From: an uncultured virus (IMG/VR IMGVR_UViG_2508501054_000004)
Taxonomy: Duplodnaviria > Heunggongvirae > Uroviricota > Caudoviricetes
Reading direction: 5' to 3' (one strand)
Length of the DNA stretch: 64,000 nucleotides
IMG/VR virus record: IMGVR_UViG_2508501054_000004
Shown here one piece after another: positions 2,347-20,957 of this stretch. The notes beneath the pieces were generated by a model that worked only from the letters and a program-made list of their open reading frames with translations, was not told where the DNA came from and did no database searches. Position 1 is the stretch's first letter. Each line of letters starts with the position of its first letter. Both the position numbers and the translations under genes were made by a program.

Positions 2347-3343
2347 CAGGCGGCACTNNNNNNNNNNNNNNNNNNNNNNNNNNNNNNNNNNNNNNNNNNN
2401 NNNNNNNNNNNNNNNNNNNNNNNNNNNNNNNNNNNNNNNNNNNNNNNNNNNNNNNNNNNNNNNNNNNNNNNNNNNNNNNNNNNNNNNNNNNNNNNNNNNN
2501 NNNNNNNNNNNNNNNNNNNNNNNNNNNNNNNNNNNNNNNNNNNNNNNNNNNNNNNNNNNNNNNNNNNNNNNNNNNNNNNNNNNNNNNNNNNNNNNNNNNN
2601 NNNNNNNNNNNNNNNNNNNNNNNNNNNNNNNNNNNNNNNNNNNNNNNNNNNNNNNNNNNNNNNNNNNNNNNNNNNNNNNNNNNNNNNNNNNNNNNNNNNN
2701 NNNNNNNNNNNNNNNNNNNNNNNNNNNNNNNNNNNNNNNNNNNNNNNNNNNNNNNNNNNNNNNNNNNNNNNNNNNNNNNNNNNNNNNNNNNNNNNNNNNN
2801 NNNNNNNNNNNNNNNNNNNNNNNNNNNNNNNNNNNNNNNNNNNNNNNNNNNNNNNNNNNNNNNNNNNNNNNNNNNNNNNNNNGNNNNNGGCTTTGTGTCC
2901 GATTTTTGTGCAAACCCAGATGCGATGAAAGCCATGCTCCGGCACATGCCACCCGTGGGGTTGTGTAGGGGGGCGGCAATTGCACAATATGCAAGCTTGT
3001 GCAGAAAAATGTCAGCGCCTTGCGCAGCAGGCACCAGGTCCTCCTGAGGGGCTACCTTGGCGCCAAAAGCCTAGCCCGCTTGGGCGAAAAGATGGAAAAT
3101 GGTTGGTGAGCCGAGATTTCTAAATCTGTGCTGATCTATTGGGTGAATCCCTATTGGGTGGGGCCAGCATGAATGCAAGCTGATCAACCCCCGTTTCTCG
3201 TGGCCTGCGGCCTATTCCAAAGTAAAAAGAGATTTGCGCAGAACTGCACCGGTCGTGATCTCTACTGACGATGTTGGTATTAGCCTAAACTGTCTGGCCG
3301 ATAAAATGCAGGCGTACCAACCAGACCTACGAGTTATACGCAG

Positions 3344-6395: not shown

Positions 6396-6794
6396 ATGAC
6401 AGGGAATGCTTTTAGGAAAGGGACGCTTCTGATTCTCACGGGGCCTGTACCACACTTCCATATTGTAATGAATGACCCCGTTTTCTCTGGTGAGCACGGG
6501 AAAAATTGTGTTCTGGTAGTTAATATTTCAAGCGTAAAGCCGAATATTTACCACGATCCTACGTGCGTGCTCGATGTCGGCTGTCATGACTTCGTCAAAA
6601 GACCTAGCTGGGTTGTGTATGAAGGCGCAACGGTTATGGATGTTGCCCGCATTGATTCTCAAATATTGACGCGTGACATCAGCACGGACGACCCAGTGAC
6701 GGAGGCCGTGTTCGCCCTAGTGCGTATGGGGTTTGATGGTTCGCCACAAGTAAAGCCAAAAATACGCCGATTCCTCAGGATCCATGAGATCTAA
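6396..6794 (+). CDS. putative toxin partner of the Panacea antitoxin (PemK/MazF-like fold suspected)
   Basis: directly abuts antitoxin; HFHIVMNDP...VVNISS...GCHDFVKRPSWVVY pattern. Confidence 0.55.
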   Translation: MTGNAFRKGTLLILTGPVPHFHIVMNDPVFSGEHGKNCVLVVNISSVKPNIYHDPTCVLDVGCHDFVKRPSWVVYEGATVMDVARIDSQILTRDISTDDPVTEAVFALVRMGFDGSPQVKPKIRRFLRIHEI

Positions 6795-7939
6795 TCTGCA
6801 GATGGATTGACGGTTGGCACGCTCAGGTCGTACACATCCATCATAGACTCATCCTTGTGGCCTGAGGCCTGCTGCTTATCTGCCCTGGTCCCAGCCGTAT
6901 CGGTGATCCCCTTCCGTTTGAAGTCGTGCATTCCAAATCGCTGAGCCTCTGTGAGGACGCTTTTGTCGATGGCCTGAACTATCAGCCGCTGGAATGCGGT
7001 GTCGAGCCCCGACTTGGATAGCTGCCCGCCGCTGGCTGAAACGATCAGGAAGCGCTGATCTGCCCGGAAAGGAACCGGCTTCTTTAGTCTTTGCCACGTC
7101 TCTGTTCTGACGGCCTTCGCTGCATCCCAGGCCGCACGCAGACGCGGTGTCCACCTCACAATGTTGTCCCGGCTGCCTTTCCGGCGGTTGGTCAGCACAC
7201 CTTCATCCAGCTCGTTCTCGTCGGTCAATGTGATCGTCTCAATACCGCGCAAGCGACACAGATACCCGATTTCCATCACATACCAAAGGTATGGCGAGCA
7301 CGCGCCTTTCTCGCCGCGCTTGAGCTGTCCCTGCTGGTGAGCAAACTTGATAAGGTCGACCATCACTGTTGAATCTGGCAGACGGCGTTGTTTGCGTTCT
7401 TTGGGCGCCTCAATGCCTTTGGCCGGGTTGTCGGTCACAAACCCACGATTTCGCCCCCACTGCATCAGACGGCGCAGGTAGCGCAGCGCATGTGCGGCTT
7501 TCGATGGTGTACCAGCTTCGGCGATCTTGTCGATGATCCGCTGGACCATTGCCGGGGTAAACTTCTTCACATCGAGTTCGCCCAGGGGTTTATCCAGTTT
7601 TGTGGGGTAGGCCACCAGGACTTCCCGCGAGTAGCAGTAGTCGTCTTGAGTCTTCTTTGAAAGTTCCTTGAACTGCTGGCTCCTGTGAAACTCATCGCAT
7701 AGGTATTGGAGGCTATCGCGATCCACGCCGCTACGCTCTTCTACGAGGCGATGAAGTTCTGAGAGTGTGACGTTTGCTGCGCACAAATTAGCGCGCTGGC
7801 GTCGACCTGCCTCATTGAAGTACAGCGTGTACCAGCGGCCCGAGCCCCGGTGATCGAAATAGACATCGCGGGGAATCGCAGTCTGATCAATGTACTGTGG
7901 GATGTTCGGGTTGTGCTGGCGCTTCCTTCCTCGCTTCAT
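6791..7939 (-). CDS. int: tyrosine recombinase / phage integrase
   Basis: CRLRGIE, HDFKRKG, SGH...DVY catalytic motifs; homologous to 52195-53343. Confidence 0.92.
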   Translation of the reverse strand: MKRGRKRQHNPNIPQYIDQTAIPRDVYFDHRGSGRWYTLYFNEAGRRQRANLCAANVTLSELHRLVEERSGVDRDSLQYLCDEFHRSQQFKELSKKTQDDYCYSREVLVAYPTKLDKPLGELDVKKFTPAMVQRIIDKIAEAGTPSKAAHALRYLRRLMQWGRNRGFVTDNPAKGIEAPKERKQRRLPDSTVMVDLIKFAHQQGQLKRGEKGACSPYLWYVMEIGYLCRLRGIETITLTDENELDEGVLTNRRKGSRDNIVRWTPRLRAAWDAAKAVRTETWQRLKKPVPFRADQRFLIVSASGGQLSKSGLDTAFQRLIVQAIDKSVLTEAQRFGMHDFKRKGITDTAGTRADKQQASGHKDESMMDVYDLSVPTVNPSAD

Positions 7940-8142
7940 ACGATATCCGCGTCATACTTTTCTTGATCAATTGGCTTGAGCCCACCTGCTTGGTTCACTA
8001 AGTCAACAGTGGTCCAAGGCCCCTTCCTTCCGAGGAATATTCTGATTCCTTCGCCGCGTAACGCCTTCTCAACGTCTGCTCGACGCGTATAGCCGGTGAT
8101 CCGTTGCAGTTCTTCAAATTCAATCACTTTGGCGACGCTCAT
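7936..8142 (-). CDS. DUF4224-like putative excisionase
   Basis: ELQRITGYTRRADVEKAL; coupled upstream of integrase; paralogue at 53340-53552. Confidence 0.75.
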   Translation of the reverse strand: MSVAKVIEFEELQRITGYTRRADVEKALRGEGIRIFLGRKGPWTTVDLVNQAGGLKPIDQEKYDADIV

Positions 8143-8408
8143 ACCGTTGCGCCTCTTATTCTTTGAAAGAAAAAGTCTTGCCGAAGTTGTTTAATCAACG
8201 CTTCGACTTCATTTCTGGTGTGGGGAAGACATGAAATAACACTCAAGTCGAGATTCATCGAGCTTATATTTTTTAACGTTACGCCTGCCGGTTGTCCTGT
8301 CCGGAACGACCTGCACAGTGCTCGTTTGATTGCTCTCTCAACGAATACGGTGAGGAGCTGAAAGCCGACGATCATGCCGGTCAGAATGATGATGTGCTGT
8401 GCTTGCAT
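8139..8408 (-). CDS. hypothetical protein with N-terminal hydrophobic helix
   Basis: 89-aa ORF coupled to the xis-like gene. Confidence 0.5.
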   Translation of the reverse strand: MQAQHIIILTGMIVGFQLLTVFVERAIKRALCRSFRTGQPAGVTLKNISSMNLDLSVISCLPHTRNEVEALIKQLRQDFFFQRIRGATV

Positions 8409-8482
8409 GTGCTGTGTCCTTGGGTAAGCCCGTCGCCGGATCGGTGGTGAGAGGGCGGCGGCGGGCCGAAGCGTGGTGAGGG

Positions 8483-9292
8483 TTAAGCCAGGGTGAAATT
8501 GCCGATGGTCAGGTCAGTTGACTCGCCGACTTCCTGCGCTACGACCTGCTTGAACTCTTGGGCAAGGTCTTCGCGCAATTGCGCCTCGCCGATCCAGCGC
8601 AGTCGGAGCACAGGCTGATCACCACCGGTGAGCACAGCGACGCGTAGCTGAATGGTCCGAGCCTGCAAACCTTCATAGGGAATGACGCTGAACAGCAGCT
8701 CGGCAGGAAGGCCATCTGCCGACTTGGCTTCGATCTGCTCCATCGCCGAACGAGAGGCGCTCATGTCGCCGACGACGTGTTCGCTTTTGCGGGCCTGTTC
8801 AATGGTGATGGAGCGAATCGCCCCGGCAGCTCGGCGCACTTCAATCTGCGTTCCGTCCTGAGTCAGCGCCTGAAGGTTCGGTGCCCAGTCTTCAATGAAG
8901 TCGCTCAGCTCTTTTTGAGCGTGTTTGGACCCGGCTGCGCGCTCCAGAGCGACAAAAGCAGCAGTCTTCTTCAGGGTGAGCCTGGCCCGGAAGTCCCCAT
9001 GGCCTGGATTGTCCTGATCGCCGAGGTTGAAGAAGACGGTGCATGTCATGTCATCACTGTCCACGAAGCCTGATGTGCTGCCGTCGGCCTGGGCTTGCAC
9101 GTACTCACTGAAATCTTTGAGTGAGGACGTCTCAAGCGACCCTCGGAATCGGCTGCGGGTCTGTTGAAACTTCTCCAGACTGACCACCGTTACGGTCTCG
9201 GGGAGGGCTATCGATGGGGTGAAGGTGTCCAGCGCCTTGGCGTTTGCGAGTACGGCGGTGTCCTGGATCAACTGGATTGCTTTGGCTTCCAT
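8483..9292 (-). CDS. DUF2303 (YfdQ-like) phage protein
   Basis: RFRGSLETSSLKDF...FNLGD..NPGHGD...QKELSDFIEDW. Confidence 0.85.
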   Translation of the reverse strand: MEAKAIQLIQDTAVLANAKALDTFTPSIALPETVTVVSLEKFQQTRSRFRGSLETSSLKDFSEYVQAQADGSTSGFVDSDDMTCTVFFNLGDQDNPGHGDFRARLTLKKTAAFVALERAAGSKHAQKELSDFIEDWAPNLQALTQDGTQIEVRRAAGAIRSITIEQARKSEHVVGDMSASRSAMEQIEAKSADGLPAELLFSVIPYEGLQARTIQLRVAVLTGGDQPVLRLRWIGEAQLREDLAQEFKQVVAQEVGESTDLTIGNFTLA

Positions 9293-9335
9293 GAATCATT
9301 TCCTGCTGTGGTGAGAGGTATGGAAAAACGGTGTG

Positions 9336-9686
9336 TTACGACCTGCTTGGGATAGGGGCGGCTTTGCGATCAAACATCTGGTCTGCCGCAGGCGTTTCTG
9401 GAAACAGCGTCAGACGACCGCCTTCGCCTACATACATCGGCGTATCGAGTGTGGTGTCCTCGGTACGACTGCCGCGCTTGGTGGGTACTTTGTAGGCCAG
9501 CTTGTGGTTGACCGTTATCTGGTGGCTGTCGGCAATTTGCTTGAGCGAAAACGTTAGTGTCACAGTGCCGACTTTTTTGTTGTCGACCACGCCTGCAGCT
9601 ACCTCGGAGAGCGCGTGACCGATCTGGTCGGCAAAGACGCCTGCGTTGAGTTCGCCGATGAACTCGGCTGTGTCCGTGGGTTTCAT
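9336..9686 (-). CDS. YfdP-like phage protein
   Basis: FIGELNAGVF...HKLAYKVPTKRG...TPMYVGEGGRLTLF; usual partner of DUF2303. Confidence 0.75.
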   Translation of the reverse strand: MKPTDTAEFIGELNAGVFADQIGHALSEVAAGVVDNKKVGTVTLTFSLKQIADSHQITVNHKLAYKVPTKRGSRTEDTTLDTPMYVGEGGRLTLFPETPAADQMFDRKAAPIPSRS

Positions 9687-9735
9687 GTCCGGTGCCTCTG
9701 GTTGATGTCACTGGGAGGCAGTGACCACCTTTGAA

Positions 9736-9978
9736 TCAGGCCGCTTCCGACTTGGCTTGTGCATCGAGGTAAGCAGCGAGATCGTGCAGGTACACCACCG
9801 GCTGGCCCTTGTTCGATCCACCCAGCCGGGTCACCTTGAGGTTGATGCGGCCTGCGTTGATCTTGCGGAGCAGGTAGCGATCACTCGATATGTGCGAGAA
9901 ATACCGTTCCCGCACAGTGCCCAGTGTGGGGCAGGGCGTGGCGAACTCTTCCCGGAGCTGACTTAACGTCTCACTCAC
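9736..9978 (-). CDS. pyocin activator PrtN-family protein
   Basis: VRERYFSHIS...RKINAGRINL...VYLHDLAAYLD; GTG start coupled to upstream stop. Confidence 0.8.
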   Translation of the reverse strand: MSETLSQLREEFATPCPTLGTVRERYFSHISSDRYLLRKINAGRINLKVTRLGGSNKGQPVVYLHDLAAYLDAQAKSEAA

Positions 9979-10349
9979 GCAGCGTCCTCCCCGTGCCCCT
10001 CCTTTTGGGGCACCAACTGAAGGCGAATCAGCTCCGCGAGACCCTCTTTCGATTTGCCGGTTGCAGCCGCGCAAAGCCGCCCCTCTCTGTCTGCAACCAC
10101 TGCGCCATATGGGCGCTCGGGGCTGCGCGTGGGGGTCACATAGGCGACTTGACCCTCAAGCAGTACAGAGTCGACAGCCCGAAATACTTCCGCCAATTCG
10201 GCAGTAACAGGCGGCAAACCGTCCAGCATGCTGAGTGCCTCTGAGGTTGCGCCGATCAATGTTGAGCGACTTACGATGGTTGGGTGGTTCAGGTGCAAAG
10301 GAACCAGTTTCAGCGCGCATACGGCGTGAGTAATTGCGTTCAGAGTCAT
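9975..10349 (-). CDS. hypothetical phage protein
   Basis: 124-aa ORF translationally coupled on both sides. Confidence 0.7.
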   Translation of the reverse strand: MTLNAITHAVCALKLVPLHLNHPTIVSRSTLIGATSEALSMLDGLPPVTAELAEVFRAVDSVLLEGQVAYVTPTRSPERPYGAVVADREGRLCAAATGKSKEGLAELIRLQLVPQKEGHGEDAA

Positions 10350-10621
10350 GCTGCGGCGTCCTTCTTCGTGTTGGTGATGCCAAGCTGGTCTGAAAGCCAG
10401 GTAACACCCGCCTCCTTGACCATCACCACTGCATAGTGGCTGTAGGCATGAATGTTCTTGTTCCAGCGGCTGCGCGAATCTACGTAGAGGTAGCCTTGGT
10501 CGCGGTGCTTGGATGCGAGCTCGCCTGCCTGGGTCAGCACGCCTATTTCTCGCAACTTTGCTCGAAATGTCCGTGGCTTCATGCCCAGAATCGTTGCTGT
10601 AGCGTCGAGGGTTCTGTTCAT
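10346..10621 (-). CDS. phage antirepressor KilAC-domain protein
   Basis: TATILGMKPRTFRAKLREIG...HRDQGYL...VKEAGVTWL. Confidence 0.75.
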   Translation of the reverse strand: MNRTLDATATILGMKPRTFRAKLREIGVLTQAGELASKHRDQGYLYVDSRSRWNKNIHAYSHYAVVMVKEAGVTWLSDQLGITNTKKDAAA

Positions 10622-10631
10622 GACGAGTGCC

Positions 10632-11204
10632 TCAGGCCACGGCCAGCAAACCGCGTGAGCGGATGGCGCGATACAGCTCGTCCAGTGCGCCATACAGCTC
10701 TTGAAGGCCGCTGTCGTTGGTTAGTACCAAGTCGTCCGGGTGGACTGACACACCTGCTTCGCTGATGTGGGGATTAACTTCGGCTGCGTCTGGTCGGTAG
10801 AGGTGAATGACCGTCCCGCCCCGTTTGCGGATGAAGTCAGCCTCGTTTTCGAAGCGGACATCGCTCACGACAAAGCCCGGCACGCCGTCGAACACCGCAC
10901 TGAGGCAATCAAGGTTCTGTTCGGCGAGGTCGACCCACAAGTTGGCGCTGATCATGTGACGGCCCCACTCGGTGCCGAGAAGTTGCATCAACTGGCGAGG
11001 TGAACGGCCCAGCCAGTCGATGGGCTGTTCCTTTTTGTCGCCTTCGAAATCCTCGGGACTGAGGTTGAATATGGCCATTATGCCGTCGCGCAACGGGTCG
11101 GCGAATGCGTAGCACTCAAACCCGTGATCGTGGGCCAGGTGACTGGCTGCGGTTGTTTTGCCGGAGCGGGCAGGGCCGGTGAGGCCGATCAGGATCTGCT
11201 TCAT
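10632..11204 (-). CDS. deoxynucleotide monophosphate kinase
   Basis: GLTGPARSGKTT P-loop, FADPLR, RQLMQLLGTEWGR, VSDVRFENEA, HISE. Confidence 0.9.
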   Translation of the reverse strand: MKQILIGLTGPARSGKTTAASHLAHDHGFECYAFADPLRDGIMAIFNLSPEDFEGDKKEQPIDWLGRSPRQLMQLLGTEWGRHMISANLWVDLAEQNLDCLSAVFDGVPGFVVSDVRFENEADFIRKRGGTVIHLYRPDAAEVNPHISEAGVSVHPDDLVLTNDSGLQELYGALDELYRAIRSRGLLAVA

Positions 11205-11395
11205 GCCGCATCACCTCCCCATGGACCGAAGTCATCGACTGCCGGTGCAGGTGCTGCTTTCGCATCTCTGCTTTTTGGCGGGATGATCAGGAGAAGGCCG
11301 GTTTGGCGCTGAGTGGTGGCGATAGATTCGCGATTGGAGGCCGCTGCCGGGTGGAGATACACCGGGCAGCGGGTATTGCGCTGAATGGTTTGCAT
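11201..11395 (-). CDS. first gene of leftward early operon, hypothetical
   Basis: 64-aa ORF, VYLHPAAA motif, coupled to kinase. Confidence 0.65.
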   Translation of the reverse strand: MQTIQRNTRCPVYLHPAAASNRESIATTQRQTGLLLIIPPKSRDAKAAPAPAVDDFGPWGGDAA

Positions 11396-11429
11396 GGCTC
11401 GTACTCTGTGGTGAGAGGGGTACGAGACA

Positions 11430-11471
11430 AAATTAGTACTACTGCTTATTTATGTCAACAGTAATACTTAT
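11430..11471 (-). promoter_or_regulatory. leftward early promoter with two operator copies
   Basis: minus strand TTGACA-N17-TAATTT (11458-11430); operators ATTAGTactACTGCT (11432) and AACAGTaatACTTAT (11457). Confidence 0.65.
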
Positions 11472-11509
11472 AATTTGATGCAAAATTAGATTTCCTGCTG
11501 ATTTTTCTT

Positions 11510-12325
11510 TTAGAGAAGGACCGAATACCAGAAGACTTTACCAATCACTCGGATGTGATCGCGCACGTAATCACCGTCATAGCGCTCGTCAGGATGTTCT
11601 TCGGCGTTGTAGCTTCGAAGGCGCAATCCTGATCCTGGAAGGCGGTACAAGACTTTCACGCGAAGCTGACCGTCGTGATCGATGGCGTACATTTTCCCGT
11701 CTTGGATTGCCGTGACAGCAGTATCAACCCCAACTGTGCTTCCATCTGGCAATACCGGTTCCATGCTGTTCCCGTGAACTGGAACGCAGCCTGCCGTGTT
11801 CGGATCGATACCCTTCTTCTGCAGAGTCCGTTTGCCGAAGCGCAGCATCCTTCCGTTTGTTTCAAGCATAACTTCGGAGCCTTTACCTGCTGAAAGTTCT
11901 ACTTCTTTGAAAAAAGGCAGTTCAACCTCGTCCGGGTCGAGAGGGGTCTTGTCATCCCATTCTTCAATCGGGATCAACGCGTGAGCGGAGGCCGAAGGGG
12001 GGCCATCTAGGTCTCCTTCTTGAAGGTCCATAGAAAACGGTGTCCCAACCACCGGGTATTTGATGAACCTCGCAAGGCGTGGGCTCACCTGCTCGTAGCT
12101 GAAGCCTAAGACGTTTGAAAACTTGGATAAAGCGTTGAAATTCAGTGGAATTTTCCCATTGAGGTACTGACTCACAACGCTCTGTCCTGCCCAACCGCAT
12201 AGATCAGCGATCCTTTCCTGTGTGAGTGATTTGTCCTCACGTTTTTTGGCCAAGTAGAAGTCTTTCAACCGCTTCGCCTCAGCGGCACGGATTTCGGGGG
12301 TAGGGTTAAGCAGGTCATAGGTCAT
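11510..12325 (-). CDS. cI: CI-like repressor (HTH + S24 peptidase)
   Basis: LTQERIADLCGWAGQSVVSQYLNG HTH; SAG.G cleavage region, GNSMEP and VKVL catalytic motifs; likely start ATG 12325. Confidence 0.92.
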   Translation of the reverse strand: MTYDLLNPTPEIRAAEAKRLKDFYLAKKREDKSLTQERIADLCGWAGQSVVSQYLNGKIPLNFNALSKFSNVLGFSYEQVSPRLARFIKYPVVGTPFSMDLQEGDLDGPPSASAHALIPIEEWDDKTPLDPDEVELPFFKEVELSAGKGSEVMLETNGRMLRFGKRTLQKKGIDPNTAGCVPVHGNSMEPVLPDGSTVGVDTAVTAIQDGKMYAIDHDGQLRVKVLYRLPGSGLRLRSYNAEEHPDERYDGDYVRDHIRVIGKVFWYSVLL

Positions 12326-12337
12326 GGCTGTCAATTT

Positions 12338-12411
12338 ATAAGCAAGACTTATTATTTCCAAACAGGCGGGCTGATATTTTTCTTGCGCTAATTTAGAAGT
12401 ATCACTAATAT
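12338..12411. promoter_or_regulatory. rightward operator/promoter region with three operator copies
   Basis: ATAAGCaagACTTAT (12338), AACAGGcggGCTGAT (12361), AGAAGTatcACTAAT (12395); TTGCGC-N17-TAATAT promoter. Confidence 0.6.
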
Positions 12412-12442
12412 TTTTACGTAGACGCCCTTCGAGGACACTAGG

Positions 12443-12775
12443 ATGCCGGATGAAATTGGAGTGATGCTTTGTGAATTTGCCAAGGGCAAGACGCAGCCCG
12501 AGCTGGCTGGCCTGCTCAGCGTGTCGCAAAGTGCCGTATCGCAAATGCTGAATTCTGATCGTGATATCAGGGTTCGAATCGGTTCTGACGGCAGTTGTCT
12601 TGCCTACGAGATCAGGCCCATAGGTAATAGAAAAAACCTAAAGCTGCTTAAAGAAAAAGTCGCAGGGCCGGGGACCTCTCACCACAAGATTCCCCCGACC
12701 CAGCAACGGCAGTGCAAAACACTGCCAACTCCGCCGACCAGGTCCTCTCACCACAAGAATCGCCTGGTTGGCTAG
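12443..12775 (+). CDS. cro: Cro-like protein (true end probably near 12651; likely 1-bp indel in A run)
   Basis: KTQPELAGLLSVSQSAVSQM HTH divergent from cI. Confidence 0.8.
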   Translation: MPDEIGVMLCEFAKGKTQPELAGLLSVSQSAVSQMLNSDRDIRVRIGSDGSCLAYEIRPIGNRKNLKLLKEKVAGPGTSHHKIPPTQQRQCKTLPTPPTRSSHHKNRLVG

Positions 12776-12883
12776 AACGATGAACCGTGCCGCACAGCAC
12801 GTTTAGCACAGCACATCGGTCGTGGTCGTAGGATAGGGCGTGCCCCTGCCTGTGGCTACACCGTAAACGGGGATTTTACGGTT

Positions 12884-13372
12884 ATGAGTCGCACGGATCT
12901 TTTGCCTGACGCTGGTCAGGTACTTTCGTTGCGTCAGGCGCTTTATCGCGCCGGGCGCGATTACAAGGGCGGGGTTACTGCCCTTGCCCACGACATGGTG
13001 TTGGACAACGACACCCTCCAGAAAAAGCTGAAGCTTGATGAAGAGCGACGCTGGCTCAATCCGGATGAGCTTGAGGATGTCATTCGTCTTACCGGCAGCC
13101 CGCTTTTGCTCGACGCTTTGATGCGGCCAGCAGCAGCTGTTTGGTACCAGCCGGAGCCTGTCGCTGCTACTCAGGATGCGCTCAAGTCGGTAGGCAAGCT
13201 TCTAACGGAAACGGGCGAGTTCGTTTCGGGCATGCATAACGGTGCTGCCGACGGTGTATGGGAACTGCACGAAGTCGCTCTGCTGGAGAAGCAGGGCAAT
13301 GACATCATTCGTGCGGTGCTGGGCATCATGGCCGGCGCTCGTCTGGCGATGGAGGATCGCGCCAATGGCTGA
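12884..13372 (+). CDS. phage regulatory CII-family protein
   Basis: ALYRAGRDYKGGVTALA...LQKKL; position after cro. Confidence 0.75.
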   Translation: MSRTDLLPDAGQVLSLRQALYRAGRDYKGGVTALAHDMVLDNDTLQKKLKLDEERRWLNPDELEDVIRLTGSPLLLDALMRPAAAVWYQPEPVAATQDALKSVGKLLTETGEFVSGMHNGAADGVWELHEVALLEKQGNDIIRAVLGIMAGARLAMEDRANG

Positions 13373-13571
13373 CGATATCGACCGCGCTACGGAACAGGCT
13401 CAGTACCTTTTGGACGTCGCTCTGTTTAAGCATCGCCGAATCCCGACCAGTTTGGTCAGCTCACAGTTCTGTGAAGACTGCGACGATCCGATCCCGGAGC
13501 CACGCCGTGCTGCCATTGTTGGCTGCGAGACGTGTATTCACTGTCAGTCGCTGCGGGAGCAGCGTAGATGA
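13365..13571 (+). CDS. TraR/DksA C4 zinc-finger protein
   Basis: MADDIDRA...CEDCDDPIPEPRR...CETCIHCQ. Confidence 0.9.
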   Translation: MADDIDRATEQAQYLLDVALFKHRRIPTSLVSSQFCEDCDDPIPEPRRAAIVGCETCIHCQSLREQRR

Positions 13572-16261
13572 GTGATCGTCCAATCCCGCTTTCAGCTTGG
13601 GCACGTCGCTACTGTGAGACATTCAATTTTGCGTTAGTACCGATACATCCGGGCGAGAAAGGCCCGAAGGGAAGGGGGTGGAACCAGCCTGGCAAGTACA
13701 TCGTTGATCCTGCCAAGGCCGAAGCGTTCTGGACTAAAAATCCAAACCACAACCTCGGCGTTGTGCTCGGGCCGAGTCGGGTCTGTTCGTTGGACGTCGA
13801 CGATGTACAGTGGACGCGGTTCGTCCTGTACGAACTGTTGGGCGTTGATCTGGACGCGCTTGCACTGGCTTTCCCGACTGTCGTTGGCAACCCTCTGCGG
13901 TTCCGGGTTCTGTTTCAGGTCCCTGAAGGGCTGGAACTGACGCGGCACTCCCTGTCTTGGCCCAATGAAAACGACCCGGATGGGTCAAAGCACAGGGCAA
14001 TCATGCTGAAGGCAAACGCTGCTCGGGAGGCGGGCGATACGGCCAGAGAGGCCTTGTATCGAGCAGATGCCGAGCAGTACAAGCGGTTCACAGTGTTTGA
14101 ATTGCGTGCAGGATTGGTGCAGGACGTACTGCCTCCCTCCATTCATCCAGGCACCGGCCAGCCATACACCTGGCGCACGCCGCCTGATGCTTCGGGGCTT
14201 CCGGTTCTGATCAGCGATCTGCTGAATGTCTGGAACAACTGGGACGTCTTCAAACGGGGCGCTGAGGCTGCGTGCCCATGGCTGCCGAAGGACGCCAAGC
14301 CTACTGGCAAACAAAAGCCGAAACCCAAGCCAGCCCTTGTAGGTGGCAGGCGGCCGTCTGTCATTGACGAATTCAACAACTGCCACGACGTCGAAGAGAT
14401 ATTGCGCAGCCACGGCTACACCAAGCGCGGGGGCAAATGGCTGTATCCGCAAAGTAGTACCGGGCTGCCGGGGATCACCGTGGCGGAAGGCAAGGTGTAT
14501 TCGCACCATGCGGCTGATCCACTGGCCAACGGTCACCAGAACGATGCATTCGAAGTGTTCTGCTTACTGGAGCATGGCGGTGATCAGTCCAAGGCGGTGA
14601 AGGAAGCGGCGCGCATGCTAGGCATGCAGTCGACCCGACCCAGCGCAAGCGATCTTCCCCCAGCCCCAACTGAGGGTAGCGACACACCAGATGCAGCAGC
14701 ACCGGACGCGCCAAGTGAGGCGGCTCCTGCACCTGACGGGGGGGCGGGGGAGGAGCTGACCATCGAGCAGGTGCTGCGCCGTTTTGCGTTGGTAGAAGGC
14801 ACCACGCATGTGTGGGACTTCGATAAGTCTCGGGCGATGAAGAAGTCGGCTTTTGAAGCGCGCGTGGGAAAGCCCATTGCCAAGCTTTGGCTTGATGCCA
14901 CGGACAAGAAGCTGATCGCTGACGAGCAGGTGAAGGACATTGAGCAGGCCCGGAAAATGGCGGGCAAGAAGGGCGGTGCGCTGGGCATGCGCCCCACGGA
15001 ACGTTACGTCTATATCGACGGTACCAAAGACGTTTGGGATCGAGAGAAGAAACGCCGGATCGCCGAGGGGGCCGTCAAGATGGCCTTGGGCGACACCTAT
15101 GCGCTCTGGTTGAACAGCAGCGAGCGGCGGGTGGTGGACGTCGAACACATTGTCTTCGACCCGACCATGACGAAGGACCCCAGCATTTACATCAACACCT
15201 TTGACGGCCTGCCATTGGAGCCGGTCAACGACGACGCGGCGTGCGCCAACCTGCGCTGGCTGATTTCATTCCTCTGTAACCATGATGAGGCTGCTGCACT
15301 GTGGCTGACTCGTTGGCTTGCATATCCGTTGCAACACCTCGGGGCCAAGATGGATACGGCGGTTCTGATGCACTCCACCATGGAAGGCTCGGGCAAAAGC
15401 CTGTTGTTCGCCGACACCTTCGGTGCGCTCTATGGCCAGTACGCCGCGACAGTTGGCCAGACCCAGTTGGAGAGCAACTTCAACGCCTGGCAAAGCAGGA
15501 AGATGTGGGCTGTGTTCGAAGAGGTGGTCAGCCGCGATCAGCGTTACAACCAGGTCGGTAAGATCAAGCACTTGGTCACCGGTAAGACCGTGCGCATGGA
15601 GTCGAAGTTCATCAACGGCTGGGAGGAGGCCAACCACATGAACGCGGTGTTTCTCAGCAACGAGATCCTGCCGTGGCCGATAAGTGACAGTGACCGACGG
15701 ATGTTGGTCATGTGGCCGATGGAAACCTTGCCGGTCGCTCGACAGAAAGCCATCGGCCGCGAGCTGGAGAATGGCGGTGTTGCCGCGCTCTACGGCTGGC
15801 TGTTGCGTGTGGATCTGGGCGACTTCAATGAACGCACCCGCCCGCCCAGCACTGCTTCACGCGAGCGGCTGGTTGCGCTCAGTCGGGCCGGGTGGCAAAC
15901 GTTTCTGTACCTTTGGCGGTATGGCGAATTGGGGAGAGGGCTCTGGGGGGTATGTCTTTCGACGGACCTCTACGCCTTGTTTCTGGAGTGGTGTCAGCGC
16001 AACAAAGAGCACGTGATGAGCCAGACGAAGTTCTCGCTGTTCATCAGTTCGGAGGTGGAGAAGACCCGGTCAATACCCTGGACTGAGCGCAATGATCGGC
16101 GCTTCGGCGCTTTCTTCGTGCCCGATGATCCTGAGGCTTCCCTTCCCCCATCAATGAGAGCGCCGGACTTAGGCGTTGCCGTTGAGGCCTGGCGGGCCAA
16201 GGCGCGCCTTGCGGGATGGAGCGTGGACAGCTGGGACCACGTGAAGGGGGTCGTAGTATGA
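13568..16261 (+). CDS. bifunctional primase-polymerase / SF3-type helicase (DUF5906)
   Basis: N-terminal prim-pol (KGP..GW, NLGV, LDVD, PPSIHP); C-terminal EGSGKS Walker A, FEE Walker B, SN motif C. Confidence 0.9.
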   Translation: MSDRPIPLSAWARRYCETFNFALVPIHPGEKGPKGRGWNQPGKYIVDPAKAEAFWTKNPNHNLGVVLGPSRVCSLDVDDVQWTRFVLYELLGVDLDALALAFPTVVGNPLRFRVLFQVPEGLELTRHSLSWPNENDPDGSKHRAIMLKANAAREAGDTAREALYRADAEQYKRFTVFELRAGLVQDVLPPSIHPGTGQPYTWRTPPDASGLPVLISDLLNVWNNWDVFKRGAEAACPWLPKDAKPTGKQKPKPKPALVGGRRPSVIDEFNNCHDVEEILRSHGYTKRGGKWLYPQSSTGLPGITVAEGKVYSHHAADPLANGHQNDAFEVFCLLEHGGDQSKAVKEAARMLGMQSTRPSASDLPPAPTEGSDTPDAAAPDAPSEAAPAPDGGAGEELTIEQVLRRFALVEGTTHVWDFDKSRAMKKSAFEARVGKPIAKLWLDATDKKLIADEQVKDIEQARKMAGKKGGALGMRPTERYVYIDGTKDVWDREKKRRIAEGAVKMALGDTYALWLNSSERRVVDVEHIVFDPTMTKDPSIYINTFDGLPLEPVNDDAACANLRWLISFLCNHDEAAALWLTRWLAYPLQHLGAKMDTAVLMHSTMEGSGKSLLFADTFGALYGQYAATVGQTQLESNFNAWQSRKMWAVFEEVVSRDQRYNQVGKIKHLVTGKTVRMESKFINGWEEANHMNAVFLSNEILPWPISDSDRRMLVMWPMETLPVARQKAIGRELENGGVAALYGWLLRVDLGDFNERTRPPSTASRERLVALSRAGWQTFLYLWRYGELGRGLWGVCLSTDLYALFLEWCQRNKEHVMSQTKFSLFISSEVEKTRSIPWTERNDRRFGAFFVPDDPEASLPPSMRAPDLGVAVEAWRAKARLAGWSVDSWDHVKGVVV

Positions 16262-19058: not shown

Positions 19059-19626
19059 TGGCGCTCCTGCTGAACGAATCCCTGTACTAAGACTGCGCGT
19101 AACGACGTGGCTTGCTCGCAAGGCCTCCGCAACAATTGGGAAACCTGTGGATCTGCTCAATCGAGGCGCGCAGTCGTCACAGCAGATGGACTGTGCCGCT
19201 GATAATAGACAGAAAACACAGACTTGACGCCATTTACATACTGGCAGCAGCTGCGGGAGCGCGCGTCTATACAAATCCTGCACTGCGATGGGTTGCAGAT
19301 GGATTCAGATTACACCGGAGGTTCTAGGTAGTGCGGTCTTCTGGGCCTTCTGGATTGTACTCATAGTGGCCTGTTCCGGACTTCAACGATAACTGGAGAC
19401 AGCCCTCGAATTGTTGACCGACCGGTATCGGATGAAGCAGCGCTTGTTGAACGTCCGCTTTTGGCCGATTGCCGCCCCCCCTATGAGGGACAGCAAGCGG
19501 CTAAAACCCGCCACTCCCCGCGGGCAGTTTTCAATCAGCGCCACCAGTTTGGAGAGCAGCCCGGTTGACCCCGCAAAGTAAGCCACTCAATATGCTGTGA
19601 ATCAATCAGCAGGGATGATCACCGAC

Positions 19627-20115
19627 ATGGCCTTTGACGCGTATTTGAAAATTGACGGAATTCCAGGTGAGGCTCTTGACGCTCAATTTAAGGACTGGAT
19701 AGAAATGGAAAATTTCGACCTAGGAGCAAGCCAGTCCGCCTCGGTCACGGCGACCAGTGCAGGCGGAGCAACGAGTGGTCGTNNNNNNNNNNNNNNNNNN
19801 NNNNNNNNNNNNNNNNNNNNNNNNNNNNNNNNNNNNNNNNNNNNNNNNNNNNNNNNNNNNNNNNNNNNNNNNNNNNNNNNNNNNNNNNNNNNNNNNNNNN
19901 NNNNNNNNNNNNNNNNNNNNNNNNNNNNNNNNNNNNNNNNNNNNNNNNNNNNNNNNNNNNNNNNNNNNNNNNNNNNNNNNNNNNNNNNNNNNNNNNNNNN
20001 NNNNNNNNNNNNNNNNNNNNNNNNNNNNNNNNNNNNNNNNNNNNNNNNNNNNNNNCAAGGGGGCGGTCAGGTGGTGGGCGGTTGGGATGCAATTTCCAAC
20101 AAGGTATACGCCTGA
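19627..20115 (+). CDS. hcp: Hcp1-family T6SS tube protein (middle in gap)
   Basis: MAFDAYLKIDGIPGEALDAQFKDWIE...SAGGATSGR ... GGWDAISNKVYA. Confidence 0.92.
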   Translation: MAFDAYLKIDGIPGEALDAQFKDWIEMENFDLGASQSASVTATSAGGATSGRXXXXXXXXXXXXXXXXXXXXXXXXXXXXXXXXXXXXXXXXXXXXXXXXXXXXXXXXXXXXXXXXXXXXXXXXXXXXXXXXXXXXXXXXXXXQGGGQVVGGWDAISNKVYA

Positions 20116-20133
20116 TATCACACAAGGAGATGT

Positions 20134-20667
20134 ATGCCCATGGACACCCAATCAATAGATACCAACAAAGTAGCGTACTGCACTTTTGAATTGACAGGCC
20201 AGCCGATGAGCCAGCTGAAGTGCAGTAATAATGAAAGCTATGAGGCTTTTTCAGGATTAACTGGCTTCGCCAACGATCCTGCTGCAGTGGGTGATCTAAA
20301 ACAGGGGCCACTGCCGCCTGGCCGATATTATATTCTTGATCGGGAAAGCGGCGGAAGAATGGGCTGGCTCCGAGAGCCGATCTCAGATTTGTTTGCCCGG
20401 ACTGATCGGAGTCATTGGTTTTCACTTTACCGTGACGACGGAAGTATTGATGATGAAACGATCGTCAGCAACGTGACGAGAGGTAATTTCAGACTGCACC
20501 CTATAGGTCCCCTAGGCTTAAGCGAGGGATGTGTCACCATGACATCTCAACTTGGCTTTGATCAACTAAGCATTTACTTGCGTAATATGGATGGAGACAG
20601 AATTCCCGGATCCGAAAAAAAATACTTTGGAGTTTTAGATGTCATTGACCCCAGGAACAAGAAATAA
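20134..20667 (+). CDS. DUF2778/Tlde1-like cell-wall-targeting T6SS effector
   Basis: AFSG...GPLPPGRYYILDRESGG...RGNFRLHP.G..GLSEGCVT (HxxGxxxxSxGC-type motif). Confidence 0.85.
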   Translation: MPMDTQSIDTNKVAYCTFELTGQPMSQLKCSNNESYEAFSGLTGFANDPAAVGDLKQGPLPPGRYYILDRESGGRMGWLREPISDLFARTDRSHWFSLYRDDGSIDDETIVSNVTRGNFRLHPIGPLGLSEGCVTMTSQLGFDQLSIYLRNMDGDRIPGSEKKYFGVLDVIDPRNKK

Positions 20668-20957
20668 TGCGCTTTATTAGAGCCACCATTAAAGTCTTTG
20701 CTGTAATTATAGTAGCCTCCATTATGACGCGAACCCTGATACTCAGCGGATTGGTGCGGACCGGATTAGAAACACCAGTTGGCAATGCAATTTATTTGTC
20801 CCTGCACGATGTATTCAGTGTCAACGGGATAGAGGATGCGGAAACAATGGTAATCTTTACGGTACTAATTGCCTCTTTAATCATTGTGACTTTTCTGGCC
20901 TGGTTGCTGGCCAAACTGGTGACCAAATACTCTTCATGGATGAAGAATAAATATTAG
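20667..20957 (+). CDS. small two-TM membrane protein, putative immunity to DUF2778 effector
   Basis: TAATG overlap with effector; two hydrophobic helices; homologue at 51796-52077. Confidence 0.7.
   Translation: MRFIRATIKVFAVIIVASIMTRTLILSGLVRTGLETPVGNAIYLSLHDVFSVNGIEDAETMVIFTVLIASLIIVTFLAWLLAKLVTKYSSWMKNKY

Follow-up and report, generated by a model that had tools for sequence, protein, structure and literature searches.

Why should one short sequence recur in both divergent early operons of a phage, always on the transcribed strand and each time within a different stem? We address this question for the immunity and early region of a lambda-like Pseudomonas prophage, contained in a 64-kb stretch of viral DNA (IMG/VR record IMGVR_UViG_2508501054_000004; hereafter, the window). 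The 11-mer CCTCTCACCAC has exactly five exact matches in the window, three on the minus strand (8444-8454, 9308-9318 and 11408-11418, designated L3, L2 and L1) and two on the plus strand (12675-12685 and 12744-12754, designated R1 and R2). Dinucleotide-preserving shuffles hold a mean of 0.04 matches and none of 100 reached five. Allowing up to one mismatch returned the same five sites with none added, against an expectation of 1.02, and one shuffle in 100 reached five. The copies are on the sense strand throughout, and a near-identical IMG/VR provirus has the same five. An earlier reading of the letters alone (the sequence-only reading) had listed these positions and strands and had claimed that the motif is always on the sense strand, and all of this was borne out. 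The comparisons described below indicate that the element is genuine and widespread, a cis-regulatory signal of temperate Pseudomonas phages that has apparently gone undescribed. Its function we approach by inference from anatomy, and the reading that we place first, tentatively and at somewhat less than an even chance, is that of an RNA translational operator.

The relatives comprised 110 loci anchored on the CII protein, 80 of them viral (the best 80 of 145 confirmed) and 30 in named Pseudomonas genomes, among them P. syringae, P. viridiflava, P. caricapapayae, P. fragariae, P. mandelii, P. lini, P. frederiksbergensis, P. putida, P. entomophila and P. panipatensis. The 10-mer CCTCTCACCA has 264 exact copies in the 80 viral loci (854,847 bases). 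On the strand of CII there are 107 copies, all 120-210 nucleotides (nt) 5' of the cII start, and on the other strand 157, all left of the repressor gene; none of the 264 is antisense or elsewhere in these loci. Orientation in other phages is thus fixed, not random, and the sense-strand rule extends from the window to the entire viral set. At least one exact 10-mer stands before cII in 79 of the 80 viral loci and 26 of the 30 genome loci. An exact left copy is absent from three full-length viral loci, and genome loci of the same arrangement have the one-base variant TCTCTCACCA at L1. The signal ranges over prophages of P. syringae, P. viridiflava, the P. fluorescens group, P. putida and P. entomophila, and over the phages Lodos, Turba and LPPA56 (P. 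aeruginosa) and PG1 and pAN (Stutzerimonas stutzeri). The reverse complement turned up in three viral contigs (L043, at 2980-3083; L027; L048), in unrelated, iteron-like DNA palindromes or direct repeats, and was dismissed as a chance overlap of patterns. Five whole Pseudomonas genomes contain 3-10 10-mers each, 2-5 of them in the prophage early region (five of five in G005), and a reversed-pattern control gave 2-5. The 10-mer is therefore at background outside the prophage, which makes the motif a phage element and rules out a host-wide one.

New here is the observation that each phage lineage has its own loop variant and carries it at its four to six genome copies. The window-type loop is CCUCUCACCA. 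In LPPA56 (P. aeruginosa) the loop is CCUCUAC at all five of R1, R2, L1, L2 and L3, and the same variant occupies four of five sites in a P. panipatensis prophage (L166). Lodos and Turba, which also infect P. aeruginosa, have CUCUCAC at four of four. The S. stutzeri phage pAN has CUCACCA at R1, R2, L1, L2 and two L3-type hairpins (7-nt loops on 9-base-pair stems), in total six hairpin or ribosome-binding sites, and PG1, of the same host species, has CUUACCA at R1, R2, L1, L2 and L3 with a further copy inside the second PL gene, at its 5' end. These six are the only copies of CUUACCA in the whole 37-kb genome of PG1, all in the early region and all sense. The same single-base difference separates PG1 from pAN at each homologous site, while the flanks of L1 and L3 are nearly identical. 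Some of their proteins are close (p64, the product of the first PL gene, 92%; KilAC-like protein, 93%; primase, 89%) and others strongly different (CI, 28%; PrtN-like protein, 37%; CII, 50%). Inheritance alone is insufficient to account for this pattern, and gene conversion is unlikely to act on a 7-nt loop flanked by unrelated stems; a common phage-specified partner would keep the copies alike. A loop that is uniform within a genome and differs by a single base between close relatives amounts to a natural specificity-swap experiment, and should lead to the reader of the signal.

The same distribution bears on whether a phage reader is needed at all. Rho and ribosomal protein S1 prefer C-rich, G-poor single-stranded RNA, and the loops are C-rich, G-poor, single-stranded and situated in untranslated gaps; their core CUCU is common to the boxA of the host rrn leader (CGCTCTTTAACAA). 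They could then be host-factor sites, for loading of Rho, for binding of S1 or a standby 30S subunit, or as a variant of the NusB/NusE boxA. Yet Lodos and LPPA56 belong to different loop classes although both infect P. aeruginosa, as do PG1 and pAN in S. stutzeri, and each phage is uniform in its genome. This argues against a host factor as the reader, and the host chromosome does not use the motif. Identity with canonical boxA was rejected, as the sequence differs and boxA is missing near the copies: with up to three mismatches there was none on the sense strand near any copy, and the window holds nine matches against 12.7 expected. The best pairing with 16S rRNA is a bulged 10-of-12 match in the rRNA body, and no exact complement of at least 8 nt occurs in the 4.5-kb rrn locus (leader, 16S and start of the spacer). 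We regard a host-factor site as very improbable, the least probable of the explanations weighed here.

Whether the stems are genuine was addressed with a set of 343 sites, which reduced to 226 unique sequences with 106 distinct 5' arms. The 52 sequences of the L3 class conform to a single 12-pair helix, with 85.9% of cells paired, compared to 34-61% when the partners were slid. Both sides have changed in six of the 12 pairs, and the covariation score was reached by none of 500 shuffles. Native flanks around the unpaired motif fold with a mean of -14.4 kcal/mol, versus -6.2 when the 3' flank was taken from an unrelated site and -7.6 at random positions. Compensatory change, the mark of a structured cis-regulatory RNA, is thus seen in the L3 class and in the comparison of native with swapped arms, and the stems do covary in relatives, on which the sequence-only reading had staked its case. 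At R the arms are exchanged in pairs, for example GCUGAGCUGGGG/CCCCAGCUCAGC, GGCCGGGGA/UCCCCCGACC, UCGGAAU/ACUCCGA and CAUCCGGCGG/CCGGAUG; within one MAFFT alignment of this class the pairing registers differ among subgroups. All five window stems differ, and the loops span 15-20 nt in the window and 7-22 nt in relatives. A covariance model, which had been proposed as a means of searching for the family, was built from the L3 class and found L3 at 58.8 bits; R2 (16.8), R1 (10) and L1 (8.5) scored among the noise. The model captures mostly stem sequence and is thus of little use as a finder of the other classes. A fixed loop on variable, covarying stems, conserved and oriented, points to recognition of a single strand by a partner that would act in trans; that this strand is RNA, as had been proposed, we infer.

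The motif is inside the loop in all five minimum-energy folds of the window copies, and two of the hairpins are clearly more stable than their shuffles (11408, z -3.1, 2/200; 12744, z -2.6, 3/200). The stems named in the sequence-only reading are present, to which we add GGGCCGGGGA/UCCCCCGACCC for the copy at 12675, and those at 9308 and 11408 do cover the initiation regions of the genes starting at 9292 and 11395. Copies in the left operon are 20-50 nt 5' of the start codons of genes that lack translational coupling. Junctions without the motif are overlapping and translationally coupled, and the motif marks the larger gaps.

The L1 hairpin (11399-11426, minus strand) has the stem CUCGUAC/GUACGAG and an inner pairing UCU/AGA over a weak Shine-Dalgarno sequence. 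Its 3' arm ends 2 nt 5' of the AUG (11395) of the first PL gene, which encodes a protein of 64 amino acids (p64, phrog_13491; 11201-11395, minus strand). The arrangement recurs in Lodos, LPPA56, PG1 and pAN, and in every lineage the arm ends 1-4 nt 5' of the AUG of p64. A purine-rich, Shine-Dalgarno-like stretch (AGAG, GGAG or GGGA) at the 3' end of the L1 loop is able to base-pair with CUCU or CCC on the 5' side of the motif, and this inner pairing leaves CACCA(C) at the tip. Inner pairing is likewise predicted at R1 and R2 (UCU/AGA) and possible at L2 (CCU/AGG). The putative PL promoter, read by eye, is at 11430-11458 on the minus strand (TTGACA, 11458-11453; 17 nt; TAATTT, 11435-11430). It is missing from the list of a consensus scan because its -10 hexamer matches at three of six positions only. 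A promoter like it precedes L1 in relatives, and the 5' end of its transcript would fall at, or a few bases before, the L1 stem.

In the L2 element (9286-9326, minus strand) the motif directly precedes AGGAAA, which is the Shine-Dalgarno sequence of the DUF2303 gene. Its outer stem is weak; in the minimum-energy fold UUUCCAU pairs with AUGGAAG, which contains the start codon (9292). The L2 class has at most a weak stem, UCCAU/AUGGA, start codon included, and its fixed feature, kept in 39 unique sites of relatives, is the motif 1-6 nt 5' of the Shine-Dalgarno sequence. The L3 hairpin (8428-8466, minus strand) has the stem GCCCGCCGCCG/CGGCGACGGGC with one C.A mismatch and a 17-nt loop starting CCUCUCACCAC. 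It is located 19 nt upstream of the AUG (8408) of the gene for an 89-amino-acid hydrophobic protein, with xis and int next. Two CACAGCAC boxes (8394-8401 and 8409-8416, minus strand) flank this AUG, within the usual ribosome-binding region of the phage group. A partial copy of the motif (CCCTCACCAC/CCCUCACCAC; 8473-8482, minus strand), also listed in the sequence-only reading, is present directly 3' of the DUF2303 stop codon and outside any hairpin. Its short form equals the L1 loop of one relative (L168), and since it is kept in few relatives only, it may be vestigial.

In the rightward operon, the R1 hairpin (12665-12701, plus strand) is formed by GGGCCGGGGA/UCCCCCGACCC, with a mismatch and a bulge, and has the inner pairing UCU/AGA. 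The R2 hairpin (12733-12772, plus strand) is formed by GCCGACCAGG/CCUGGUUGGC, with one G.U pair, and holds the motif (12744-12754) in its loop. It is followed by the AUG (12780) of an 8-codon mini open reading frame (ORF) and then by two CACAGCAC boxes (12793-12814, plus strand), in the same tandem arrangement as at L3. An ACAGCAC box occurs 33-64 nt 3' of the motif in 79/113 unique sites at R, 38/72 at L1, 52/57 at L3 and 0/45 at L2, compared to 1.3% of random 80-nt windows. As ACAGCAC is the usual spacer between Shine-Dalgarno sequence and AUG or GUG at other genes of these phages, the box is part of a translation-initiation region and not the private partner of the hairpin. R and L3 match within each lineage in the number of boxes (one or two) and in their spacing. 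R thus has the appearance of a hairpin with a pseudo-initiation region behind it. In the group of the window, the AUG that follows the R box opens the 8-codon ORF. Most relatives with a single hairpin have this AUG in frame with cII, so that it extends CII, and others have it out of frame, closed by an early stop, or missing.

Two further hairpins were seen in this interval. The first, between R1 and R2 (12708-12726; GGCAGTG-CAAAA-CACTGCC), has a 7-base-pair stem and a 5-nt loop and is kept in relatives with two R hairpins. The second, 3' of R (12776-12835), has the arms CUACGAC/GUCGUAG around a ACACAGCAC box. One relative (L096) and Lodos have UUAUGAC/GUCAUAG there, a compensatory pair of changes. 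No stretch 5' of cII is more conserved than this hairpin and the direct repeat GGTCGTGGTCGT combined.

The operator reading is ranked first because the signal is found at each site of de novo initiation, with the Shine-Dalgarno sequence or the AUG inside or against the hairpin. A short single-stranded core, CUYACCA or CUCUCAC (here CCUCUCACCAC), would be displayed in a hairpin loop whose stem is free to vary in sequence. The operator would stand just 5' of the ribosome-binding region of every independently initiating early block, as well as in the untranslated stretch 3' of cro. A phage-specified partner, a small protein or possibly a small RNA, would read the loop and so control translation initiation of the first PL gene, of the DUF2303 gene, of the block of membrane protein, xis and int, and of the cII leader. 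At 11408, 9308, 12675 and 12744 the 5' half of the motif (CCUCU) may pair with the Shine-Dalgarno-like stretch and leave CACCA(C) at the tip, and a reader bound there would hold a closed initiation region shut or else release it. Where the host is GC-rich and intrinsic terminators are few, as here, control of translation would presumably also set downstream Rho-dependent polarity. The anatomy favours translational control over antitermination.

Several observations weigh against the operator. Three of the five window hairpins are no stabler than shuffles (8444, z -1.1; 12675, z -1.3; 9308, z +0.06). Folding of each copy thus upheld the claim that the copies are in loops and separated only two of the five by stability; the case rests on the comparative data and not on energy alone. 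A distance of 130-210 nt separates the R copies from the cII start, and the AUG 3' of the proximal R copy is no conserved ORF start. In the window itself, the cro ORF encodes 110 amino acids (12443-12775) and spans both R1 and R2. Relatives of the same immunity have a 69-amino-acid Cro that ends ...KPKAA, 26 nt 5' of R1, and the cro stop is 21-26 nt 5' of the first R motif in 85 of 95 unique contexts. The window cro seems to be frameshifted in an A-run near its normal 3' end, by a real mutation or a sequencing error. One candidate reader, p64, belongs to no known family and is 92% identical between PG1 and pAN, despite their differing loops. Finally, internal A.C mismatches (31 events) outnumber G.U pairs (17), the reverse of the expectation for a sense RNA, and of 85 arm clusters 49 fold better as the antisense strand and 19 as the sense strand (seven are equal and 10 weak). 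Relatedness and the C-rich sense strand may explain part of this result. As the strand test gave no sense-RNA signature, it keeps alive those readings in which the active molecule is an antisense RNA or DNA.

The antisense reading has a possible source in the cro-cII interval. A leftward, PRE/pE-like promoter may be present at 12830-12858 on the minus strand (TAGCCA, 12858-12853; 17 nt; TATCCT, 12835-12830). Among 66 unique sequences preceding cII, 62 have the element TAGCCA-17/18-TAnnnT, and all variants of its -10 hexamer retain T1, A2 and T6. Next to it, within 12830-12882, the Shine-Dalgarno sequence of cII is enclosed by a perfect palindrome, ACCGTAAA/TTTACGGT, which varies in sequence among lineages with its symmetry kept. 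Together the two may constitute a CII-activated establishment promoter with its activator site. A transcript that starts between R2 and cII, probably in dependence on CII, would carry the complement of the R1 and R2 loops and of the pseudo-initiation box. It would pair with the cro-cII mRNA in cis and make loop-loop contact in trans with L1, L2 and L3, such that one RNA silences both lytic early operons at the lysogeny decision. The loops would be phage-private addresses read by RNA and not by protein, and the loop variants would be specificity ("immunity-like") classes. The 11-14 identical nt of the copies, a usual length for RNA pairing but a long one for a protein site, are consistent with such a sense/antisense network, as are the conservation of the promoter-like element, the agreement of R and L3 in boxes and spacing, and the resemblance of R to an initiation region with no conserved ORF. 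A concerted one-base switch would pass easily through G.U pairing, and most hairpins fold equally well or better on the antisense strand. Yet the promoter is a consensus match alone, and pure pairing would need no similarity of the core across a superfamily whose members include phages of P. syringae and of S. stutzeri. A sense-strand G.U signature is missing from the left copies as well, and such a network is not known to have a precedent in lambda-like phages. We hold this reading, third in rank, to be improbable.

More probable, though still unlikely, is the second-ranked possibility that the element acts in processive antitermination as nut sites do, with a phage antiterminator, for which p64 would be a candidate, that binds the loop, perhaps along with the CA-rich box, and that with host Nus factors confers on RNA polymerase a resistance mainly to Rho-dependent terminators in both early operons. 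Lambda has one nut site after PL (nutL) and one after cro (nutR), and its N protein is arginine-rich at the N-terminus. Here, too, there is a site early in each divergent transcript, L1 at the start of the putative PL transcript and R1 and R2 after the cro stop and before cII. The signal has two parts, a hairpin and a linear box; the lineage-specific loop classes resemble the specificity groups of N and boxB; and the cro-cII spacer is long, untranslated and C-rich. The boxB of lambda carries a 5-nt GNRA-like loop on a short stem, and both loop and stem are nearly the same at nutL as at nutR. No such pentaloop on a shared stem is found in the element, whose stems differ among the copies of one phage, so that a reader cannot contact the stem as N does. 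With boxA-like sequence also missing near every copy, membership in the lambda nut family was rejected. Copies L2 and L3 are additional, 2-3 kb into the left operon and always adjoining ribosome-binding sites, and our scan of the window found no intrinsic-terminator-like site, a hairpin with a U run, 3' of the copies. The sequence-only reading had proposed an undescribed nut/boxB-like antitermination or translational-control element. What survives of this is the undescribed element and the nut-like placement at PL and after cro; its kinship to lambda nut and boxB does not.

As for the protein that such an antiterminator or operator would employ, p64 is always the first PL gene product after L1, a conserved protein of 53-69 amino acids and by position a candidate analogue of lambda N or cIII. 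It has no Pfam match and falls in a PHROG family of unknown function, and a profile search of the PDB returned nothing below E 0.65. The AlphaFold model has low confidence (pLDDT 62) and predicts a single helix in a chain mostly without fixed structure; a small, largely unstructured protein would suit an antiterminator. Among the 120 listed of its 607 homologues every name is 'hypothetical protein', and the ESM Atlas gave only unnamed clusters for p64 and for the 124-amino-acid phrog_8889 protein. Against an N-like role, the N-terminus (MQTTQHSNTR...) is not arginine-rich, and the protein barely differs between PG1 and pAN. Window-type and LPPA56 p64 have a common CPVYLHP core with different loops, and p64 does not obviously co-vary with loop class. 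CI and Cro were excluded as readers because many immunity types have one loop class in common. No CsrA-like protein was found among the early genes.

The remaining genes of the region follow the order of a lambda-like prophage. On the minus strand, from the left, are the integrase (6791-7939), the excisionase (7936-8142), the 89-amino-acid hydrophobic protein (8139-8408), the DUF2303/YfdQ protein (8483-9292) and the phrog_204 protein (9336-9686), then the PrtN-like protein, the phrog_8889 protein, the KilAC-like protein and the dNMP kinase, followed by p64 and the S24-type CI repressor (11510-12325). The plus strand has Cro (from 12443) and the CII-like protein (12884-13372), and after cII a DksA/TraR-type zinc finger and a primase-helicase. 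Contigs of a related prophage from public RNA libraries, which span parts of both early regions and carry no ends, strand or level, diverge from the window exactly at 11431 and 12655. The repressor, cro and the operators thus form an exchangeable immunity cassette bounded by L1 and R1.

These borders bring in the possibility of a DNA-level signal, with hairpins that form in single-stranded DNA for priming or loading by the primase-helicase, or that serve as recombination 'linkers' at module borders. The cassette ends adjoin L1 and R1, there is no strand asymmetry of G.U pairs over A.C mismatches, and the orientation flips across the immunity region in the manner of a lagging-strand signal around an origin situated there. 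For primases of this type, however, the origin is usually within or close to the primase gene itself, and from there one fork direction would apply to all copies. A DNA signal would not call for the exact placement relative to start codons, Shine-Dalgarno sequences and the PL start, nor for its absence from the rest of the genome (all six PG1 copies are early), and recombination linkers require neither hairpins nor covarying stems. We consider it decidedly improbable, between the antisense network and the host-factor site.

Three features elsewhere in the prophage are recorded here for their own sake. The only larger gap of the left operon without the motif (9686-9736) has a hairpin of its own, GUCACUG-CCUCC-CAGUGAC (9707-9725, minus strand), ahead of the phrog_204 gene, and relatives have GCCCCUG-CCGUU-CAGGGGC in the same gap, followed by GAGG-CACAGCAC-AUG. 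Several genes of the left operon have a stop codon that overlaps the next start in a junction of one type, GGAGGTGATGCGGCATGA (such as that at 11195-11215), so that their proteins end in ...DAA; the junction carries a strong Shine-Dalgarno sequence for the next gene. The replication/lysis interval holds cargo (19597-20957) that consists of an ORF with the N-terminal part only of an Hcp (type VI secretion) domain, a 177-amino-acid Tlde1-domain protein and a 96-amino-acid ORF, and it looks like a prophage-borne type VI effector module.

To our knowledge, early-gene control in temperate Pseudomonas phages is almost unstudied. The Rfam search that the sequence-only reading had suggested yielded no family: Rfam 15 gave no match at the gathering threshold over the whole window and, with E up to 5 within 8000-13600, only an irrelevant 18-bit snoRNA. 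In a full-text literature search with the motif as DNA and RNA on both strands, the matches listed were eukaryotic or from animal and plant viruses and apparently unrelated. Among the matches listed for antitermination or nutR in Pseudomonas prophages none concerned the element, and early-operon stem-loops gave no match. We thus found no description of it in the literature searched, whose coverage stops short of subscription journals and supplements; the searchable text of the paper that names Lodos and Turba has no 'antitermin', 'hairpin' or 'stem-loop'. If the reader proves to be a new RNA-binding protein or an antisense RNA, the element would represent a new kind of switch in the lysis-lysogeny circuit and a source of orthogonal RNA parts for Pseudomonas.

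Comparison with known systems places the element between several of them. It has in common with lambda nut the placement at L1 and R, the sense strand, the combination of hairpin and linear element, phage-specific classes and the borders of the immunity cassette. It differs in its C-rich loops of 7-22 nt, in stems that are not conserved within a phage, in the missing boxA and in copies deep in the left operon at ribosome-binding sites; nor do these phages have a recognisable N-like arginine-rich protein. The put sites of HK022 occupy the same two places in the early operons and act as RNA in cis. In put, it is the paired stems that matter and not the loops, and no specificity partner is needed, whereas the loops of the element are conserved and vary in concert. 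CsrA/RsmA sites are likewise a short fixed motif, in unrelated hairpin loops or unstructured at the Shine-Dalgarno sequence, with several per transcript, sometimes paired tens of nt apart, and with an effect expected on translation initiation. Unlike them, the element has no GGA in its motif, is confined to one phage group and varies by lineage. In the coat-protein hairpins of MS2 and PP7, the T4 RegA sites and the Mu Com site, too, a hairpin holds or abuts the Shine-Dalgarno sequence or the AUG and the loop is read by sequence, and in T4 RegA one signal is common to several early messages. No protein homologous to theirs is present here, and one copy of the loop, at R1, is far away from any proven start codon. 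The P1/P7 c4 RNA and the CopA/CopT kissing loops resemble the element in their repeated short complementary loops, free stems and single-base specificity classes that change together; the candidate antisense RNA here has only the putative leftward promoter, and the Rfam models had no match. By these analogies the element would work most like a CsrA-type or phage-operator signal, or a kissing-loop antisense system, and is placed like nut sites.

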